A stretch of DNA of 64,000 nucleotides. Origin: a virus. A program made the position numbers and the translations under genes. Below, in pieces: positions 2,668 through 28,282 of the stretch. The notes below the pieces were generated by a model. The model did not search any database. It was not told the origin of the DNA and saw only the letters and a program-made list of their open reading frames with translations. The DNA is taken from IMG/VR virus record IMGVR_UViG_3300033553_000338, positions 64,001 through 128,000 of that record; one strand, given 5' to 3'. Numbering within the stretch: position 1 is the first letter of the stretch; each line of letters starts with the position of its first letter.

Positions 2668-4974
2668 TTATACGATGTCTTTCCGAACCAATCGTTGCTG
2701 AGCATTGTCTGACATATACATCTGCTTCTCCTCAAGGTCAAGTGACCGGTCTTTTAGTTCCAGGACCCGGTCATTGTAATCTGTACGGCTGTCAAGATCC
2801 TTCTCTTTCAGCTCCAGATCTTTTTGATGTTTTTCTTTCTGTAACTGAAGCTCGGCCTGTTTAATATCAGACTGTACCTTATTCAAGCGTTCAATTTCTT
2901 TCTTGGCTTTCTCCACAACTTTGGTAAGCTCCTCCATCTCTTTATTCTTTTCTTCCAGAGCCTTGGAAAGATCACCATGTTTTTCTGCAATCTCAGCAGC
3001 GTATTCGATGATTTCGGAAGGATTGTCCATCATGACAATTCTCAGTCCGACCTCAACCGGCACAGCCCCTGTATTCATCGCAGCAGATACAATAGCCTTG
3101 GCCTCTTCCAACTTCGCTTTCTCAGCAGATGAATTGACCACCTTGATGCGGTAATTGGTGAAGCTAAAATATTTTGGAATGATGGAAAAGATAACTTTAC
3201 CCTCATTATATGTTCCTCTGTAATTATCATCCAGCGTAGTTTTCGACAAATTGATAAGATCTGTCAGCAAGTACTTCATCAGAACGTCATGTTCGTCATA
3301 CAAGTGCTTCAACACCAGTGATGAGTTGTTCATCCCTACCCTAACATTTGATACGGCTTCTCTTTGTTGGATCTCCCCGATCATTGCCGGGGTTACACCG
3401 GTGACCTTGGTGGCTTCCCCATCCAGATCCAGGATAGTTTGGTTGATCGCACTCAGCGACTCCCCGTTCACGGTCATATCAAAAGTACCATGAGTAGCCC
3501 CACTAACCGCAGCAGATCCTTCCTGGGTTGTATCCACCAAGTTTAGCCCGTTCTTGAGCATCTTGGAAGCTTTCAAAGCCCGTTCCATCTCGTTAACTCC
3601 ATAGAATTCCGGAATAGCAGAGTACTCTAGGGTCAGCCCACGGACACCGCTGTTAGCCAGCAGGTTGTCACGGTGAAAAACCATGATGTCATGTGTATCC
3701 TGGATATCCTTGCACTTCCAAAGGATGCTGTAGGTGCTGCCCCCACGATCTGAATGACGAACTCCGTTGAATGACAGGTAAACTTTATCAGGATCGGTAT
3801 CATGACGAACAGCGTCCTCAACAAGTCCCATGTCCAGGTAGATGCTGTCATCAACCCTGACGGACCGGAACAGGTGTTCCTTGATACGGGTTTTCCGGAT
3901 CTTCTCCGGGCCAACCACTACCCTACCCTCGCGGACATCATTTGGATCAATTTCGTATTCCGACAATCCGATCCATTCCGTCTCATAGACTTTGATCACT
4001 TCGGAATCATCACCAATCCCGTAGCGGTCCGGAGATGACTTTGCTAATTCAACATCCCGTTCCCCTTGCTGGTTGTATTCAGCTACAGTCATGTTGCTGG
4101 CCCAGGTCTCAGAAAACTTAACGGTACTGCACTGCATCAGCTCCTCACGCTCCTCATCTCCCATGAGATGTCCGTATTTCTGAAGAATGTCCCGTCTGCT
4201 CATGTAGCGGATGTAAACAAACTCCATCGCCTCGTTCATCATCATCTGATCCCTGCGCTTGGTGTAGTAAGCATTTTCCGGGATAAGAGCTTCCGGTTTT
4301 GGTTTCCTTCCTTTCTCAGTAGAGTACACGCGGTAAACCGCTTCCCCTACCACAGTCAGATCCATAAACAGGAGTGAACGAAGCATTGCCAAGTTAGCTA
4401 CCGGGCAATCGCGGTAATCCTCAATCAGGTTCACGGCACTCTCAAGGAACTTGTTACGCCATTTCCTGTTGGTTTCCGTCTTGGCCTGTTCGATTAAACG
4501 ATCAATAGCGGTAGGCTCCTCCCCCTCTTTCTTGGGTTTGACAGACTTTCCAAGACCTGCGTACAGGCTTGAAAGCAATTCAACAGATTGTTCCTGCTCC
4601 GCTAAGAACAGGGATTTATTGTCGGTTACTGTAACTTTGTAATCAAACTCGGTGGCTGACAAAAGGCCTACAAGCACATCAATCCGGTTACGAATAAGTG
4701 GAGTAAACTTGATTGCAGACGGTGACCCTACCCCGTAGTTATCTTCGAGGTATGCGAATTCCTTTTTATCGCGCAAACCGCTATAAAAATCCCGTTGTTT
4801 GAACATCAACTTTCTCCGTCTGGAGTTCTCGTCAACATTCCGATTGATCACCGCATCGGTCATCATCATCAGATAATCAAGGCTATCCCTTTTTTCTTCC
4901 AGGGACAGATTGAATTCATCAAATGCATCCCCTGGTTCGCCCAGGGAATCATTTCCTACGTCTTTGAAAGCCAT
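2668..4974 (-). CDS. Portal protein (crAss-like)
   Basis: 768 aa. IKFTPLIRNRIDVLVG, GVTPAMIGEIQQREAVSNV and a C-terminal coiled coil resemble Crassvirales portals; lies near TerL. Confidence 0.85.
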   Translation of the reverse strand: MAFKDVGNDSLGEPGDAFDEFNLSLEEKRDSLDYLMMMTDAVINRNVDENSRRRKLMFKQRDFYSGLRDKKEFAYLEDNYGVGSPSAIKFTPLIRNRIDVLVGLLSATEFDYKVTVTDNKSLFLAEQEQSVELLSSLYAGLGKSVKPKKEGEEPTAIDRLIEQAKTETNRKWRNKFLESAVNLIEDYRDCPVANLAMLRSLLFMDLTVVGEAVYRVYSTEKGRKPKPEALIPENAYYTKRRDQMMMNEAMEFVYIRYMSRRDILQKYGHLMGDEEREELMQCSTVKFSETWASNMTVAEYNQQGERDVELAKSSPDRYGIGDDSEVIKVYETEWIGLSEYEIDPNDVREGRVVVGPEKIRKTRIKEHLFRSVRVDDSIYLDMGLVEDAVRHDTDPDKVYLSFNGVRHSDRGGSTYSILWKCKDIQDTHDIMVFHRDNLLANSGVRGLTLEYSAIPEFYGVNEMERALKASKMLKNGLNLVDTTQEGSAAVSGATHGTFDMTVNGESLSAINQTILDLDGEATKVTGVTPAMIGEIQQREAVSNVRVGMNNSSLVLKHLYDEHDVLMKYLLTDLINLSKTTLDDNYRGTYNEGKVIFSIIPKYFSFTNYRIKVVNSSAEKAKLEEAKAIVSAAMNTGAVPVEVGLRIVMMDNPSEIIEYAAEIAEKHGDLSKALEEKNKEMEELTKVVEKAKKEIERLNKVQSDIKQAELQLQKEKHQKDLELKEKDLDSRTDYNDRVLELKDRSLDLEEKQMYMSDNAQQRLVRKDIV

Positions 4975-5054
4975 ACTATTTCACGTTTACTATAAGATAC
5001 GAAAAAAATGGAACAGATACTAGCCCCCGAGCTTCGATGAGCTTGTTACTTTAT

Positions 5055-5240
5055 AACAAACTTTTAATGTCAGAAACATTGTAAGTTTCTTTTAAGATTT
5101 CAAACTTTAAAAGTTTCTTTCAATGTAAGTTTCTTTTGTTGTTGCTTTGTAACAAACTTTGCAAGTTTCTTTTATTGTAACAAATATTGTAACAAACTTC
5201 AAAAGTTTCTTTTATTGTTGCTTTATTTGAAAGTTTCTTT
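5055..5240. repeat. Centromere-like (parC/parS) iteron array
   Basis: Six exact copies of AAGTTTCTTT at 5083, 5111, 5127, 5163, 5203 and 5231, interleaved with AACAAACTT-like motifs, directly upstream of parA. Confidence 0.75.
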
Positions 5241-5249
5241 TAATATTTC

Positions 5250-5280
5250 TTGCTTTTTTGAAATGCCTCACCTAGATTTG
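5250..5280 (+). promoter_or_regulatory. Bacteroidota housekeeping-type promoter of the par operon
   Basis: TTG (5250-5252), N20, TAGATTTG (5273-5280); matches the -33/-7 TAnnTTTG consensus. Confidence 0.6.
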
Positions 5281-5305
5281 CCTTATCTATCAATTTATCT
5301 ATCAC

Positions 5306-6088
5306 ATGAGAACACTAATTTTCAGCAACAACAAAGGGGGAGTGAGGAAAACTACCCTTGCTTACCACTCTGCCAGAGTATTGTCAGATAGGGGATTTAA
5401 GGTGCTTGGAATTGATTTAGATGAGCAATCCCAGTTTGTAGACCCTTTTGACATTTCCCCGGAGGATCGGGTTACCTTAAAGGATGTAATTGTTCGTCAA
5501 AAGCCCTTAGAGAAATGCCTTACACAGATTAATGAAAACCTATACATGCTCTACTCTAATACGGATATAGGGGAGATAGATGGGTACCTGCACTCCATTA
5601 ATTTCAATTTTCAGAATGTTATTTACAAGCAGTTAGAGGATCTGATCAAGTTATTTGACTTCGTTATCATCGACATGCCCCCAGGAACTACCAAACGATC
5701 TGCCTGTGGGTACGCATTCCCGGATGGCGAAATTATAACTCCTGTATCCACTGAGATTAATAATATCAAATCCCTAAAGCTTCTGATAGATAATGTTGAA
5801 TTTGCTAAGGAAGTGTTTAACCCAAGTCTGGCTATACGTAAAGTCATAATGAACCACACTGGCCCTGCGTTGAGCAAGGACGGGCAGATGGTTATTAAGT
5901 TTGTCAAAGATAAGTTTGATGGGCTTATATGCCCTGTGTGGTTCCGTCATTCTACTGACTATGCAGGATCCGCTGCCCGGGGAAAAACAATTAAGGAGCA
6001 CCTCACAGATGAAAAGAAAATGAATACAAAGGGTGGTGAACTTATTGAGGAATTAGATGCTATTGTAGATTTTATAATTACCAAGTGA
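5306..6088 (+). CDS. parA: ParA/Soj-family partition ATPase (type Ib, no N-terminal HTH)
   Basis: NNKGGVRKTT deviant Walker A, VLGIDLDEQ, FDFVIIDMPP Walker B. Confidence 0.9.
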   Translation: MRTLIFSNNKGGVRKTTLAYHSARVLSDRGFKVLGIDLDEQSQFVDPFDISPEDRVTLKDVIVRQKPLEKCLTQINENLYMLYSNTDIGEIDGYLHSINFNFQNVIYKQLEDLIKLFDFVIIDMPPGTTKRSACGYAFPDGEIITPVSTEINNIKSLKLLIDNVEFAKEVFNPSLAIRKVIMNHTGPALSKDGQMVIKFVKDKFDGLICPVWFRHSTDYAGSAARGKTIKEHLTDEKKMNTKGGELIEELDAIVDFIITK

Positions 6089-6387
6089 TGACTGAAAATA
6101 AAAAAGACAACGATTCGTTCGAAGACAGGATTTCAAGAAGTGTAAGCAAAGGAGCTATGTCATCAATCCTCAAATCAGAAGAGGGTAGGGGAGAGATGCC
6201 TGAAACACTTCCAAAAATTGATACCTCTAAACTAAAAAAGCCCACGAACTACCGTAGGCCTGTTTCTATTCGCGCAGATATTGTGGGATTCTATGAGAAC
6301 TATGCCACCAAGAGAGGGTTCAAGTTTACAACCTTGATCAACCTCATCCTGGAGGAGTACATGAAAGAGCTGTCCGGCAAAAAATAA
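6085..6387 (+). CDS. Small ribbon-helix-helix centromere-binding protein (ParG/omega-like)
   Basis: Overlaps the parA stop. Flexible N-terminus followed by RRPVSIRADIVGFYENYATKRGFKFTTLINLILEEYM (beta-alpha-alpha pattern). Confidence 0.65.
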   Translation: MMTENKKDNDSFEDRISRSVSKGAMSSILKSEEGRGEMPETLPKIDTSKLKKPTNYRRPVSIRADIVGFYENYATKRGFKFTTLINLILEEYMKELSGKK

Positions 6388-6399
6388 CCGGACAACCTT

Positions 6400-6561
6400 C
6401 TATTCAAACAGGTCTTCCAAGTCGTTTTCTGAAATCTCTTCCGGGGTTATCCCGAGGGATTTCAGCTCTTCAACTTTCTTGTCAATCTGGGTTTCCAGAT
6501 AATCCCTCTCCAGGCAATCCTGGACAAGGTGACTAATTAGCTTCGTTCGTTGCTGGCTCAT
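6400..6561 (-). CDS. Small acidic hypothetical protein (53 aa)
   Basis: ATG at 6561 (MSQQRTKLIS...), overlapping the end of the GroES-like gene. Confidence 0.5.
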   Translation of the reverse strand: MSQQRTKLISHLVQDCLERDYLETQIDKKVEELKSLGITPEEISENDLEDLFE

Positions 6562-7192
6562 TATCAACAATCTTTGCAAGCAACTCATCCACCTGGACCA
6601 TCCGGTAGGTTTCGTCTCCAATCAGTATCTCCGAACCGATGTAAGAATCAAAACGAATCTTGTCACCGGGAACAACCCAATCAACATTTTTGGCCACAGA
6701 AATTACCACACCACCAAGGGTAGGGGCTTCAAACTTAATGTTGTCCTCCATTCCCACGTTGGTAATTACCTCACTGTCTTCCATATCCAGCTCTTCCACC
6801 TTGGTGCTTGTGATACGTACCAATGCCCGGCCTTCACCTGGCACAATTGTTTTTTCGTTGAATACTTTTGTCTTCGAGCTCATTAGCAACATACTTTCAT
6901 GAATCATTTTAATGTACCCTTTCTCGTGTGTAGGGATACCAAAACCGGATAATTGGAACACAATTGCATAGCCACTATCCGGGGTAATGTCCATACATTC
7001 TTTTGATTTCTCAAGGACCTCAACTATATACAGCTTATCCTCTTTGAACCTTACCTGGTGTCCAAAGTCATCGCTTCCTTCGGCCAGTAAAATCCCATCT
7101 TCAGTCTTCTGGCTATCTTCGCGGATAACCATCGTCTTTACATTCTTGTTAAGCGGCCTGATGGAATCACGCCTCTCATTAGTATCAATCAT
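6533..7192 (-). CDS. groES: Tandem double-domain GroES/Cpn10 co-chaperonin
   Basis: IRPLNKNV...KTEDGILL near the N-terminus. A second unit runs IVPGEGRALVR...GGVVISVAKNVDWVVPGDKIRFDSYIGSEILIGDETYRMVQVDELLAKI. 219 aa, about twice GroES. Confidence 0.7.
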   Translation of the reverse strand: MIDTNERRDSIRPLNKNVKTMVIREDSQKTEDGILLAEGSDDFGHQVRFKEDKLYIVEVLEKSKECMDITPDSGYAIVFQLSGFGIPTHEKGYIKMIHESMLLMSSKTKVFNEKTIVPGEGRALVRITSTKVEELDMEDSEVITNVGMEDNIKFEAPTLGGVVISVAKNVDWVVPGDKIRFDSYIGSEILIGDETYRMVQVDELLAKIVDNEPATNEAN

Positions 7193-7237: not shown

Positions 7238-9523
7238 TTATAAATCGAATTCAAGTAGCTTCTCTTTTTCTTCAACAACCCAATTAAAAGGTGTTTTCTC
7301 TACAGATTCCTCAAAACCCGGAGCATCCATTGGGTTAGAGTAAGAGAGGTTTAACTTCTCATGAGCGCTTCGGGCATCTTTGGACTTTTCTGTGATCACC
7401 CCAAACTCCCGATACCCTTCCTCATTGATGAAGTACCCCAGGTATTTTATCTCTTTGGACTTCCGAACTTCCTTCTGTACGTTCACATTTAATGCAGCAT
7501 CGTCCTCGTCCAGCAATTCACACATACCCATGGCCACCACCAAGTCAAATTTTCCCTTCAGCTCATAGCTGAAATTGATCAGGTTCTCGACCATCTCCAG
7601 AAAGAAAATATTCTCTCCGTAGTCGATGATGTAATCCTTGATCAGTCCGATGTAGTGCTGAATTGTTTTGACCTTGATACTGGTACCTTCAATCCGGGCC
7701 ATTTTCTTGGCTTTGGCCGGGTTCACGTTGTTGGTATTGATGGAAACTTCCTTGGCGATGTACCGGAGCATCTTTCTTCTCCGGAAATAGCTGATCACTT
7801 CCTTACGCGTTCTCTCTACGTTCAGTCGTGCATTGTAATACACCGCAAGTTTCAGTGCCCGTTCATAAGCTTCCCGTTCATCGTTGGGCCGGTCCATATA
7901 GTAGGCCACGTAAATGTTGTTGGTCTTTTCCGAAGACAGGTATTTTTTCTTGATGGCTATGGCGAATTTAGATCCTTTCTCTCCAACCAGGGAGTTTGCC
8001 ACACCATAGTCGATACCATCGACTCCACCAATGTATAAATTTGCAGGTACTTTGCCCCCAGGAGCTTTCTCAGGTTCTTCAATGATGTGGACCTTGCCAC
8101 CGGCCATCTCTTCAAACTTAACGCCTGTAATGACCCCCTTTTCGTTTTTTATCCAAAATAAATCCCCAACGCGATCTTCGGGAATTCCTTTTACGGTCCG
8201 GATATTTCGTTTGACTCCCTCCAGCTTAATCTTATCAAAGTCGTTTGTACCTGATTTGCTAAAAGCTTCGCGGGGCCAGAACGGGTATTCGGCAGCATGA
8301 TCCGTTAATCCTTTTACGTTACCAGCATCTTCCTGCTTTTTCCGTTCCCGGACTTCCTCCTCTAATACCTTGGCACAATCAACTACGCCATGCTTATCTA
8401 TGTATTTAAACGAGAACGCATAAGCTGGAAAAAAGAATCCCTGGAATTCCGGTTCCCCGGAGTCTGTGAAAGGAGAGTGGAGTCCCAGCATCCCAGCTGC
8501 CTCGGGCTGATAAAAAGCCTCCATCAAGCCGGCAAGGTTCTCACCATTACTTCCTTCGTCTCCTCCGGTGCCCCAAACGACCATTGTGCCCATTTTGATT
8601 CCACCAGTTTTAATCAACCCCCTTGCGGCAGAGATAACTTTGCCCAGTCCTTTAAAGGATCCGGCCTCTTCCAGGAACACATATCGGCAACGTGATCCCC
8701 TCAACTTGCTGGGTTTGTCGATCACTTTGGCCATGATGGTCGATAACCACCCGGATGCAGTCCCTTCCTTATCTTTGGTACCTGCAGTTTTTACCGCTGC
8801 AGTATCACTGACATGCCTCAGCTTCTTCATCCCACGCTGGGTATTGGAGTTCAGCCAGTCTAGCTGGGTACTGGCCTTATTCATTACACCATCACCTCCC
8901 AGCAGGTAACCCTCAAAGGAAGCACAGAACATGACCTTACTCCCTTTCTGTACCGTATAAGTATTTGTGGCACAGGACGCTGCATACTCAGACATACCAC
9001 ATCCACGGGGCTTAACACAAACAGCATCGTCCTCTTTATGCCAACTCCATTCCAGGTAGTGTGACCATGCGTAGTGGTATTCAATAAATTTGGGGTGTTT
9101 AATTTCCTCGGTAACAACGGAGCCTTCCTTTTCGCGGACCGGTAGGTTGTAATAGTTCAGCCAGTAGTAAAGATCCCCCGGACATCGGAACCCGTTAATT
9201 TCGTATCCTTGTGTACACCTGCGGTATTCTTCATCCCAGTAGGCTTTGTACTTTGCAGTTTTAAACGGGGCTTTTGTGTAATACTTGTTTTTTTCATGGA
9301 AGATTGCCGCAGGACGGAACCAGTTAGAATCAAATCGCTCAGTTAGCTGTTTATACTTCGAGAGTTTCCATAGATCCTTATTCATGTCCATCCAGGTGTT
9401 GATGGACCCATCCATCAAGCCTTCATCGATAGCTCTTTTATTCTTCTGAATATTTGACCGATAACTCTTGGAGTTAAACTTTTCAAGAAGTTCTAACCAT
9501 TCTGTATACGTGTACTTTTGCAT
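7238..9523 (-). CDS. terL: Terminase large subunit (crAss-like)
   Basis: VKPRGCGMS Walker A, FLEEAG Walker B, WGTGG motif, nuclease YIGGVDGID and FDLVVAMG. Confidence 0.93.
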   Translation of the reverse strand: MQKYTYTEWLELLEKFNSKSYRSNIQKNKRAIDEGLMDGSINTWMDMNKDLWKLSKYKQLTERFDSNWFRPAAIFHEKNKYYTKAPFKTAKYKAYWDEEYRRCTQGYEINGFRCPGDLYYWLNYYNLPVREKEGSVVTEEIKHPKFIEYHYAWSHYLEWSWHKEDDAVCVKPRGCGMSEYAASCATNTYTVQKGSKVMFCASFEGYLLGGDGVMNKASTQLDWLNSNTQRGMKKLRHVSDTAAVKTAGTKDKEGTASGWLSTIMAKVIDKPSKLRGSRCRYVFLEEAGSFKGLGKVISAARGLIKTGGIKMGTMVVWGTGGDEGSNGENLAGLMEAFYQPEAAGMLGLHSPFTDSGEPEFQGFFFPAYAFSFKYIDKHGVVDCAKVLEEEVRERKKQEDAGNVKGLTDHAAEYPFWPREAFSKSGTNDFDKIKLEGVKRNIRTVKGIPEDRVGDLFWIKNEKGVITGVKFEEMAGGKVHIIEEPEKAPGGKVPANLYIGGVDGIDYGVANSLVGEKGSKFAIAIKKKYLSSEKTNNIYVAYYMDRPNDEREAYERALKLAVYYNARLNVERTRKEVISYFRRRKMLRYIAKEVSINTNNVNPAKAKKMARIEGTSIKVKTIQHYIGLIKDYIIDYGENIFFLEMVENLINFSYELKGKFDLVVAMGMCELLDEDDAALNVNVQKEVRKSKEIKYLGYFINEEGYREFGVITEKSKDARSAHEKLNLSYSNPMDAPGFEESVEKTPFNWVVEEKEKLLEFDL

Positions 9524-14731: not shown

Positions 14732-15478
14732 CTACCAATATTTCCTTACAGTACGCTCGGATATCATTAAAAGCTCTGCAATATCACTCTTCCCCTTGTT
14801 CGGAAATTCAATCCTGGCCCTCTTGATGCGCTCGAAGTTGTTGAGCTTCGTGCCTACATACAGCCCCTTACCATGCTTGATGATTGTGTTCTTGGTCATG
14901 GTGCCAATCTCCCGGTCCAGGTACCCAATAGTGGGCAGCACATCGTAGTTGTGGATCCGGTAATCAAAGGAGCTCTCAGCAATCTCTTCCCTCTTCTCCG
15001 TAGAGTCCCTTAAACTCCTTGCCGCAGCCTTGGCCTTACTACGCTCGACTCCCACAAGACGCTCGATTTCATCGCTGTACCAAGTCTTCCTGAATTCACA
15101 GATAGGCTCGACTAAACGTTCACCTTCCTCAACCCACCAGATAGCAGTGTCCAGTAGACCGGGGTTATTGATCAGGGCACGTTGTACCAGGTTGTTACCC
15201 CTCCAGTTGATGATCCTCTGTCTGATTACCATGGACAGCATGAATGAATCCGCTTCCGGGTTGTTCAGCTTGAGGATCTTGAACTGCTCGGCTAGGTACA
15301 GGGTGATCGCTTCCTGGTTAATCTTGGACTCCCAACGCAGGTATGGGTAGTTCTCATAGTAGGGTAAGCCTCTCCCAATAATGGTGGTCACAGGTTCTGT
15401 AGGGTAGGGGCTCCGTGTTTTGAACCATACCGATTCTATAGATGTCTGAAGGTCTTTGTACTTAGCGGTTAAACTCAT
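14732..15478 (-). CDS. DNA-binding protein with C-terminal HTH; candidate plasmid-type replication initiator
   Basis: C-terminal SDIAELLMISERTVRKYW. Has its own host-type promoter and an adjacent inverted repeat. The Rep role is an inference. Confidence 0.4.
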   Translation of the reverse strand: MSLTAKYKDLQTSIESVWFKTRSPYPTEPVTTIIGRGLPYYENYPYLRWESKINQEAITLYLAEQFKILKLNNPEADSFMLSMVIRQRIINWRGNNLVQRALINNPGLLDTAIWWVEEGERLVEPICEFRKTWYSDEIERLVGVERSKAKAAARSLRDSTEKREEIAESSFDYRIHNYDVLPTIGYLDREIGTMTKNTIIKHGKGLYVGTKLNNFERIKRARIEFPNKGKSDIAELLMISERTVRKYW

Positions 15479-15508: not shown

Positions 15509-15539
15509 CAAATATACGAAGGAATTTCATCACTACAAA
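15509..15539 (-). promoter_or_regulatory. Consensus Bacteroidota sigma-A promoter
   Basis: Minus strand reads TTTG-N19-TATATTTG exactly. Confidence 0.75.
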
Positions 15540-26671: not shown

Positions 26672-28282
26672 CTATAGGTCACTGAAGGCATCATCGCTGG
26701 TCTCCATTTCCTCCTTACCGGTGATCATACACTCTGTAGTGAGGATCATCCCTGCAACTGAGGAAGCATTGAGTAAAGCATTCTTTGCAACCAATGAAGG
26801 GTCAATTACTTTGGTGATTAGCATATCTCCAAAGTCACCAGTCCGTAGGTTCAGGCAAGAATGTATATCTCCCTTAAGAATCATTTCAGCAGCAGAGCCG
26901 ATGGCGTTCTTTTTGCCGGCATTTGTAAGAATGCACTGAAAGGGAGCATGTAATGCTTGCTTCATGATTTCCCAGGCGATAACGTCATGGGTGTTTGAGC
27001 TATTGTAGCTTAATACTGAAGCAGCTCTCAGGTAAGTGGCACCACCACCGGGCACAACTCCGTCTTGGATAGCCGAACGACAGGCCGCGAGAGCATCGTC
27101 AATCCGGTCAATCTTTTCGCGGATCTCAAATTCGGAGTATGCTCCAACATTGATTGTTGCAATACCCCCGGTGAACTTCGCGTAACGCTGACGGTTTTTC
27201 TTCAAGTCAAACTCATCATCTGATGAGGCTACTTGTTTTTCGATAATCTCTTTACGCAGAGCCTTAAGCTCATTGCTACCATGTCCACCAATAATGGTGG
27301 TTGAGTTTTCGGTAACGATTACTTTCTCAGCTGATCCCAGGTACACAGATTTAAAGGATCCCAACAGATAACCTCTGTCCGGGGCAAATACAGTTGCACC
27401 GGTCATAGCTGCTATGTCATCCAAAGTCTCAACGCGGTAGGAACCGTGTTCCGGTGTATGAGTAGCACAAATTTCTACAGCTCCTTTCATCCGGTTTAGG
27501 ATAAGGTTGTTTAATACTTTCTGATCGTACTCATTGGCAATGATCAGTATAGGTCTTTTTTGCTCTTTGGCATAAGTAAGTACCTGGACAATTTCAGCTA
27601 CCTTTTCAATCTTTGCCTGGCACACTAAGATCAATGGGTCTTTAAGGATACACTGTTTTTTGTCCGGAGTATTGGAAAACTGACTGTTAAGGAATCCTTT
27701 CATGTACTCCAGACCATCGGTGAAGGTCACAGTTGTTTCAAAAGATGAGGATTCACCCAGTTCAATGACCCCCTGGTATCCAATACGGGAATAGGCCTGG
27801 TAGATTAGGTTTCCGATCTCTGTATCATTGTTCGCGGATATTGTGGCCACTTCACGCAGGATGTCCAGGTCTACCGGACGTTTTACACGGTCGATAAACT
27901 CTACAATCTCCTGAACTCGCAGGTCGATGCAACGCTTAAGCTCGACAGGATTGACATCTTTTTTCAGTGCCTCCATGCCCAGCTTGGTGATTGCATGTGC
28001 TAAAACCGTAGCAGTGGTTGTACCGTCACCGGCATCATCGGAAGTCCTGGAAGCTACCTCCTTTACAATGTTAGCTCCAAGGTTCTCAAAGGGATCCTCA
28101 AGGGTAATACTTCGGGCCACAGTCACACCGTCTTTGGTAATGTGGGCTTTTCCGGAGTTTCTTTCAATAATCACATTTCGTCCCATAGGCCCTAAGGTGA
28201 CTGAGACTGCCTTTGCAAGGATGGTCAATCCACGAAGGATTGCTTCCCTTGACTCATCGTTGAATTTAATTTGTTTTGCCAT
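26672..28282 (-). CDS. groEL: Chaperonin GroEL (Cpn60), 536 aa
   Basis: MAKQIKF...VTLGPMGRNV, ITKDGVTVA, GDGTTTATVLA, GVVPGGG; no GGM tail. Confidence 0.96.
   Translation of the reverse strand: MAKQIKFNDESREAILRGLTILAKAVSVTLGPMGRNVIIERNSGKAHITKDGVTVARSITLEDPFENLGANIVKEVASRTSDDAGDGTTTATVLAHAITKLGMEALKKDVNPVELKRCIDLRVQEIVEFIDRVKRPVDLDILREVATISANNDTEIGNLIYQAYSRIGYQGVIELGESSSFETTVTFTDGLEYMKGFLNSQFSNTPDKKQCILKDPLILVCQAKIEKVAEIVQVLTYAKEQKRPILIIANEYDQKVLNNLILNRMKGAVEICATHTPEHGSYRVETLDDIAAMTGATVFAPDRGYLLGSFKSVYLGSAEKVIVTENSTTIIGGHGSNELKALRKEIIEKQVASSDDEFDLKKNRQRYAKFTGGIATINVGAYSEFEIREKIDRIDDALAACRSAIQDGVVPGGGATYLRAASVLSYNSSNTHDVIAWEIMKQALHAPFQCILTNAGKKNAIGSAAEMILKGDIHSCLNLRTGDFGDMLITKVIDPSLVAKNALLNASSVAGMILTTECMITGKEEMETSDDAFSDL

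Follow-up and report, generated by a model that had tools for sequence, protein, structure and literature searches.

The stretch of DNA analysed here (the window, 64,000 nucleotides) comprises bases 64001-128000 of the complete 157,880-bp virus record IMGVR_UViG_3300033553_000338, which has a GC content of 43%. Between the gene for the portal protein on one side and the genes for a GroES-like protein and TerL on the other, the window carries a compact cassette consisting, in this order on the + strand, of a repeat array, a parA gene and a gene for a 99-residue protein (Table 1). The flanking genes all lie on the - strand, and the opposite orientation ascribed to the cassette in an earlier reading made from the sequence only is thus confirmed. 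Positions with the prefix G000 are in whole-genome numbering, and positions without a prefix are in window numbering.

The ParA assignment of the first gene is borne out by matches to the Pfam families AAA_31 (4e-25) and CbiA (7e-11) and to PHROG 164, 'ParA-like partition protein' (2e-30), and by intact Walker motifs. The deviant Walker A motif, KGGVRKT, occupies residues 10-16 (5333-5353) and is followed by Walker A' (IDLDEQ) and Walker B (FDFVIIDMPP); since Walker A begins at residue 10, the protein has no N-terminal helix-turn-helix (HTH) extension. Residues K10, G11, G12, K15, T16, D37, D39 and D123 are conserved; the signature lysine is intact, and the motifs align with those of 46 homologues. 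The top NCBIfam match is the equivalog model NF041546, 'ParA family partition ATPase'. Homologues annotated as ParA are carried by 2,169 plasmid records, and the best annotated phage match comes from Halobacterium phage phiH. A word-based homologue search gave a best match of only 25% identity, and a single-protein locus search of IMG/VR with ParA returned no match. No PADLOC defence family was matched, and a defence function of the cassette was rejected on that basis.

The translationally coupled gene for the 99-residue protein overlaps the parA stop codon in the sequence TGATG; its most likely start is the ATG at 6088, the GTG at 6085 being less likely. The protein matched no Pfam, PHROG or NCBIfam entry and had no word-level homologue. 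Its N-terminal ~55 residues are charged, of low complexity and probably disordered. An AlphaFold2 model of the C-terminal 44 residues (6253-6384), built from a five-sequence alignment, has a pLDDT of 87 and consists of an extended N-terminus followed by helices at residues 8-21 and 25-42. In ribbon-helix-helix (RHH) proteins the strand of the monomer pairs only in the dimer, and the modelled domain is predicted to be an RHH domain with the shape of such a monomer. Almost all of the top PDB matches found with Foldseek are RHH proteins (CopA-SO, CopG, omega, ParG, PutA, Arc, NikR and MazE), with probabilities of 0.9-0.99 and TM-scores of 0.6-0.77; for so small a domain the E-values stay weak (0.04-1). 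A sequence profile searched against PDB sequences gave one marginal RHH match (3kk4, E 0.064) and otherwise noise, and Pfam scans of the five RHH domains returned noise only, even at E<=10. The RHH gene that the sequence-only reading had placed downstream of parA is in this way upheld by structure prediction.

Small open reading frames (ORFs) downstream of the ParA genes of related phages, described below, have in common a C-terminal strand and two helices with an I-L-E-E-Y/F-L-like ending. Their N-terminal halves carry a basic patch first and then an acidic patch with Phe, and this half may be the tail that contacts ParA. Complex prediction for a ParA dimer with residues 1-55 of the 99-residue protein gave a score of 0.18 (mark 0.32), which counts neither for nor against binding.

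The repeat array lies between the divergent starts of the portal gene and parA. It holds six exact copies of the 10-bp unit AAGTTTCTTT (at 5083, 5111, 5127, 5163, 5203 and 5231), all on the + strand and within 158 bp (5083-5240), spaced irregularly by 28, 16, 36, 40 and 28 bp. Because the whole 157,880-bp genome contains only three other copies, two on the + strand and one on the - strand, such clustering far exceeds what chance would give. Beyond the six iterons noted before, the array has further structure: the inverted half-site AAACTT occurs four times (5058, 5102, 5154 and 5194) and stands 9 nt ahead of three of the repeats, forming AAACTT-N3-AAGTTT palindromes at 5102, 5154 and 5194; three copies of TGTAACAAA are also present, and a unit of ~32 bp recurs at 5148 and 5188. 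The GC content is 25% in the array and 41% in the parA and RHH genes, compared to 46% in the flanking portal and TerL genes.

A candidate promoter follows the array. The octamer TAGATTTG at 5273-5280, 25 nt ahead of the parA ATG, is a perfect Bacteroidota-type -7 box, and this part of the host-type promoter proposed in the sequence-only reading stands; the -33 element is imperfect (CTTG, N20 spacing), and the motif class is not enriched in the genome. Relaxed promoter motifs were found 15 times genome-wide (~9.7 in shuffles), the full -33/-7 pattern occurred at chance level (5 vs 4.1), and the -7 motif TAnnTTTG was equally frequent in sense and antisense orientation upstream of ORFs of the whole genome (9 vs 9). 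The Bacteroidota -7 motif was accordingly rejected as a genome-wide promoter signal, and since neither the -7 box nor the bipartite motif is enriched, the parA promoter is a weak call, plausible by position only. The last AAGTTTCTTT repeat ends 9 nt ahead of the candidate -33 element; because the candidate promoter abuts this repeat, the par operon could be autoregulated by a protein that occupies the array. One of the five full genome matches, TTTG-N19-TATATTTG, lies elsewhere in the window (15509-15539, - strand), upstream of an ORF for a 247-residue protein of no Pfam family (14732-15478).

Table 1. Features of the cassette and its flanks, of the distant initiator gene, and of the corresponding gap in related loci. 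Window numbering, except where the prefix G000 is given.
Feature	Position	Strand	Description
Centromere-like repeat array (parS/parC analogue)	5040-5250	+	Upstream of parA, after the portal start
Candidate host RNA polymerase promoter, CTTG-N20-TAGATTTG	5249-5280	+	Match by position only
parA	5306-6088	+	260-aa small type Ib-like deviant Walker A ATPase
Candidate centromere-binding-protein gene	6088-6387	+	99 aa, predicted RHH C-terminus
GC-rich hairpin, GTCCGG...CCGGAC	6368-6397	none	Spans the RHH-gene stop codon at the convergent junction
Portal gene	2668-4974	-	Left flank; divergent from parA across the repeat array; PHROG 6547, 4e-38
Small conserved ORF	6400-6621	-	Convergent with the RHH gene; overlaps the 3' end of the GroES-like gene; right flank marker
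GroES-like gene	6533-7192	-	Right flank; 219 aa, Cpn10 C-terminal domain
TerL gene	7238-9523	-	Right flank; PHROG 6681, 4e-63; 30-34% identity to TerL of crAss-like phages
Rep_3 plasmid initiator gene	G000 151463-152464	-	333 aa; Rep3_N 6e-12, Rep3_C 1e-16
Gap in L002 (and fragments L005, L007)			Cro/CI-type HTH, ParA of 270 aa, small protein of 153 aa
Gap in L006			HTH, ParA of 263 aa, small protein of 125 aa
Gap in L001			ParA of 218 aa, two small RHH-like ORFs, Rep_3 initiator, six 19-nt iterons spaced 21-22 bp

The genome is divided into two strand blocks: one on the - strand, which holds the structural and packaging genes (G000 7.7-79.5 kb), and one on the + strand for the remainder. Within the ~70-kb - strand block, the par cassette is the sole clear + strand unit. 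The hairpin at its downstream end is a possible bidirectional terminator or insulator. Both TerL and the portal protein are of crAss-like type by their PHROG matches. The named tblastn matches of TerL are mostly crAss-like phages at 28-34% identity, including cr*_1 genomes and phages of Bacteroides, Flavobacterium, Cellulophaga and Azobacteroides, and on account of these matches the phage is classed as crAss-like in a broad sense, distant from the gut Crassvirales. In the GroES-like protein the Cpn10 domain is confined to the C-terminal third, behind a long N-terminal extension; its gene adjoins TerL in all relatives, and a full GroEL/Cpn60 homologue of 536 residues is encoded in the same window (26672-28282, - strand).

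Portal-based searches recovered five relatives from independent metagenomes, two in IMG/VR (L001 and L002) and three in JGI metagenomes (L005, L006 and L007), with portal proteins 36-39% identical to that of the window; L005 and L007 are short fragments that hold the interval only partly. Every relative locus that covers the interval between TerL and portal has opposite-strand genes between the GroES-like/TerL genes and the portal gene. An antisense ParA gene and a small gene with a strand-helix-helix C-terminus occupy the gap in L001, in L002 (with L005 and L007) and in L006. Because this pair recurs at the equivalent site, the cassette, as judged from these loci, is a trait of the clade and not a one-off insertion; the word 'inserted' in the sequence-only reading is corrected to conserved within a clade.

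The gap of L001 (L001:3874-7045, in IMGVR_UViG_3300035698_028364) amounts to a whole plasmid replicon within the packaging module, and its two RHH-like ORFs are paralogous. In L002 and L006, the Cro/CI-type HTH genes (L002:4456-4809, 117 aa; L006:8436-8768, 110 aa) lie on the par strand between portal and parA, a site at which the window genome has the repeat array only. An exhaustive HMMER search with the window ParA gave a single protein below 1e-30 (P0006, 34% identity), the nearest ParA. Its 1.2-kb contig (L011) carries TTACTTA five times upstream of ParA and a small ORF downstream; a 30-residue fragment at its left flank was unconfirmed as a portal N-terminus. The next match (L012) comprises a ParA C-terminus, a 109-residue protein with an RHH domain matching that of the window (E 1e-5) and, at the position matching the window ORF 6400-6621, a convergent small gene homologous to it (E 5e-11).

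The trait is specific to the clade: none of 78 more distant crAss-like TerL loci had a match to the ParA profile within ~10 kb of TerL, and five complete crAss-like genomes of 100-155 kb had none anywhere; as a positive control, the same search succeeded on the window's own genome. The sole match of the clade TerL profile in 185,579 species genomes is L015 (JBEBWF010000010.1), a phage-sized 93.6-kb contig binned with a Bacteroidota metagenome-assembled genome (Sphingobacterium); its TerL is crAss-like and distant (26% identity), and no ParA was found within 10 kb of it. Within the clade, the ParAs are 20-38% identical to one another. Their tree pairs the window with L011 and L002 with L006, resolves nothing deeper and places L001 on a long branch. 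As only two pairs are resolved, vertical descent and repeated replacement were both rejected as demonstrated histories; the divergence may reflect either rapid change during vertical descent or the exchange of modules in one fixed slot.

A second plasmid-type module lies 82 kb from the par cassette in the same genome, past the window end (G000:C1:151463-153672; loci L008-L010 and L014). It encodes a Rep_3 plasmid initiator with both winged-helix domains (WH1 and WH2), related to RepM/RepE by NCBIfam and matching 508 plasmid records, the fullest alignment being to a Runella plasmid initiator; neither this module nor par has a close relative among plasmids. Directly upstream of the gene are six iterons with the core TGTCGTAG (G000 152581-152782), in a 21-bp phase within pairs and accompanied by two degenerate copies and an A-rich tract, which makes six to eight iterons in total. 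A divergent ORF of 192 residues across the iterons has a Rep3_C-like winged helix only, and a nearby ORF of 133 residues has no Pfam match. Like par, rep is transcribed against its neighbouring genes. The phage encodes its own PolA, SF1 helicase and GroEL; given this polymerase and helicase, a Rep_3 origin is not obviously needed for lytic replication. None of the five further complete crAss-like genomes has a Rep3_C match above the cut-off. BLASTP could not align the Rep_3 protein of the window genome with that of L001, and for this reason the two give no evidence of a shared ancestral replicon, which was set aside as unsupported. ParB_N (PF02195) was not found in the genome at E<=1.

In a six-frame search of the whole genome for two recombinase families, neither Phage_integrase (PF00589) nor Resolvase (PF00239) was found, and both models matched control genomes. 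The sequence-only reading had seen no integrase in the window, which holds, and had proposed a scan of the rest of the genome for an integrase or repressor; neither was recognised there, and the Rep_3 initiator was found instead. The record ends in an exact 141-bp terminal repeat (G000:C1 1-141 and 157740-157880). Since this length equals what we take to be the largest default k-mer of a common assembler, the repeat points to a circular or terminally redundant assembly and probably arose where a circular or permuted genome overlaps itself in the assembly, rather than being a physical direct terminal repeat. Other genes near the genome ends include one for a protein with a Tad2-like (Thoeris anti-defence 2) domain (6e-21; G000:C1:150902-151228), which adjoins the Rep_3 gene, and, near the left end, a thymidylate synthase gene (355 aa) beside an HNH/NUMOD4 homing-endonuclease-like gene (G000:C1:5515-7582), with a PD-(D/E)XK nuclease gene close to this pair.

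Type Ib partition loci, such as parFGH of TP228 and delta-omega of pSM19035, are defined by their layout: a small ParA, an RHH protein encoded behind it that bears a flexible tail, and repeats ahead of the operon. The features of this type that can be read from sequence are all present in the cassette: a deviant-Walker ParA without HTH, a downstream protein predicted to be of RHH type and to have a disordered tail, and upstream repeats overlapping the promoter region. Likewise, the genome combines virion and packaging genes with plasmid replication genes on one replicon and has no tyrosine or serine recombinase, as expected of a phage-plasmid. We favour, with moderate confidence, the hypothesis that the cassette is a type Ib-like partition locus that, together with the Rep_3 origin, would let the clade persist as a phage-plasmid. 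Episomal maintenance is the most economical reading because of the Rep_3/iteron replicon, the lack of integrases and the clade-wide retention of the cassette. The lifestyle is probably that of a low-copy plasmid or of a stable episomal 'carrier-state' phage, and the low-copy plasmid prophage of the sequence-only reading is supported to that extent by the Rep_3 gene with its iterons, the absence of a recombinase and the cassettes kept in relatives.

In such a phage-plasmid, a partition complex would form on the phage DNA as dimers of the 99-residue RHH protein occupy the AAGTTTC-based repeats at 5040-5250. The charged N-terminal tail of the same protein would contact the small ParA and activate its ATPase, and ParA, riding the host nucleoid, would separate sister copies at cell division. 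Binding beside the promoter could also autoregulate the par operon. Together, par and Rep_3 with its iterons, without an integrase, would form the replication-plus-segregation kit of a low-copy plasmid, and the antisense orientation of both plasmid modules relative to the surrounding phage genes might allow their expression apart from the lytic programme.

Several observations weigh against this hypothesis. The irregular spacing of the repeats differs from the tightly phased arrays of TP228 and pSM19035. ParA scores 53 bits against the NF041546 cut-off of 180 bits, and by this measure it is a member of the ParA superfamily and not an equivalog of that family. The Walker A arginine pointed out in the sequence-only reading is indeed present, and at this fifth position none of 142 KGGxxK[ST] homologues has Arg; the site is naturally variable, with Gly in 102 homologues and Ala, Ser, Leu, Thr, Cys, Gln or Asn in 40, and because of this tolerance the residue, judged from the alignment, is unusual and not evidence of inactivation. 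The clade ParAs form at least three divergent groups whose common origin is not settled by the tree. No HTH_3 domain was found in six frames at E<=1, ten ORFs at the strand switches had no Pfam match, and no repressor, anti-repressor or toxin-antitoxin gene was recognised in a genome most of whose small ORFs are unannotated. The GC skew tracks gene orientation (minimum at G000 ~79 kb, maximum at G000 ~4 kb) and does not mark the Rep_3 origin; it was rejected as an origin locator for that reason. Finally, neither a search of 185,579 species genomes nor one of the PLSDB plasmids yielded a member of the clade, so that no carriage in cells was seen in these collections.

Other functions of the cassette were considered. 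A regulatory module, in which the RHH protein represses the portal/late-gene region as an omega-like global regulator with ParA as a co-factor and the phage is strictly lytic, would account for the position of the array, precisely in the interval from which portal and parA diverge. Repression is a classic function of RHH proteins, a Cro/CI-type HTH gene closely precedes parA in L002 and L006, and no lysogeny repressor was found elsewhere in the genome. However, ParA, an ATPase for which a repressor has no need, is intact and has been retained by every relative; a Rep_3 iteron replicon is not obviously needed by a purely lytic phage with its own PolA; and a type Ib system can combine regulation with partition. 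We regard a purely regulatory role as unlikely. It is less likely still that the cassette serves the lytic cycle, with ParA and the RHH protein positioning assembly sites or phage DNA, whether replicating or concatemeric, in the cell, or with the RHH protein and the repeats acting as a pac/TerS-like packaging element. The constant location between TerL/GroES and portal in all relatives fits such a role, as does the lack of an identified small terminase, but the cassette is transcribed against the packaging genes, and a 99-residue protein with a disordered tail and an RHH domain does not resemble ring-forming small terminases. ParA, RHH protein and upstream repeats make up the canonical partition triad, and the Rep_3 replicon of L001 in the same gap points to plasmid rather than packaging functions.

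The lower GC content of the parA and RHH genes, the lack of close homologues of the cassette genes and the high divergence of the relatives' ParAs would also suit a passenger, selfish or in decay, that came from a host plasmid and is of no use to the phage. Such a passenger would hardly be expected to retain two intact ORFs with all catalytic motifs and six exact repeats, or to keep its architecture at one site among phages whose portals are as divergent as those compared above, and we consider this origin very improbable. The record is a metagenome assembly, and its terminal repeat probably reflects an assembly overlap and not measured ends, so that a plasmid fragment misjoined into a phage contig was also weighed; the order TerL, GroES-like gene, antisense small gene, antisense ParA and portal recurs in independent contigs from several metagenomes, which leaves a chimera with next to no credibility.

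Our favoured hypothesis of partition in a phage-plasmid can be extended, as a speculation to which we give a small chance, to an entire clade of environmental crAss-like phages that would be true phage-plasmids and switch lifestyle without a classical repressor. With par in the late/packaging block and Rep_3 in the early block, both antisense, phage transcription might silence plasmid maintenance, while the repeat-bound RHH protein might hold back the late genes; the gap between portal and TerL might be a dedicated slot for the exchange of ParA, RHH and Rep modules between lineages.

How crAss-like phages persist with their hosts over the long term without integrases is an open question, and the only experimental proposal, that the prototypic crAssphage is a phage-plasmid, rests on RepL genes without a partition system. 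The clade described here supplies textbook plasmid-maintenance parts in a crAss-like genome, namely a ParA, a putative RHH adaptor, a centromere-like array and a Rep_3 gene with iterons, and these are separately testable for binding, stabilisation and autonomous replication. Should the proposed lifestyle be true, plasmid-like persistence would not be confined to gut Crassvirales. The gap between portal and TerL is a conserved site that could serve for screening metagenomes for similar phages.

Compared to the known type Ib systems, the cassette resembles ParF-ParG-parH of TP228 and delta-omega of pSM19035 in three respects: its small ParA lacks an N-terminal HTH, the next protein combines a flexible N-terminal tail with a predicted C-terminal RHH domain, and short repeats ahead of the operon overlap its promoter region. 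In the Foldseek comparison, ParG (1p94) and omega (1irq, 2bnz) rank high among the structures similar to the modelled domain; at the sequence level, the 99-residue protein has no detectable similarity to either. Unlike the contiguous heptads or tetramer boxes of those loci, the repeats are 10-bp units at irregular spacings of 16-40 bp with partial palindromes; the Walker A motif has Arg for the usual Gly, and the locus is antisense in the packaging module of a 158-kb phage.

Among phages, a phage-plasmid nature has been proposed for Carjivirus communis, the prototypic crAssphage, the evidence being two RepL genes, mobC and a toxin-antitoxin pair (PMC10983915); it had earlier been flagged as a singleton phage-plasmid (PMC7969092). 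The two phages share the crAss type, the absence of an integrase, a plasmid-type initiator, two opposite gene blocks and a proposed plasmid-like persistence. They differ in that C. communis has RepL and no described ParA system, whereas the present genome has Rep_3 with iterons and a full ParA/RHH/repeat cassette; its TerL is only ~30% identical to those of gut Crassvirales. The epsilon crAss-like phages carry a repressor and anti-repressors and no integrase, and their authors speculate about plasmid maintenance (PMC11054128). They too have large crAss-like genomes (~150-190 kb), but the situation is reversed: no ParA or Rep is reported for them in that paper, while par and Rep_3 are present here and no repressor was found.

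In the full-text literature searched, which covers few subscription papers, no report of a partition cassette in crAss-like or Crassvirales phages was found. The combination of structural and packaging genes, an initiator with its origin and ParA partition, without an integrase, is shared with the phage-plasmids P1, N15 and the SSU5 group (PMC7969092). P1 and N15 have type Ia ParA/ParB(HTH) systems and defined immunity repressors; the present phage differs in its type Ib-like system, its crAss-like virion module and the lack of a recognisable repressor. Phage-plasmids with partition systems are thus known, and the present phage would join them with a type Ib-like par locus, in a crAss-like lineage whose lifestyle is an open question. 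Two of its features are uncommon: the par locus occupies a constant antisense slot within the packaging module, and a further plasmid module, likewise antisense, lies in another part of the genome.

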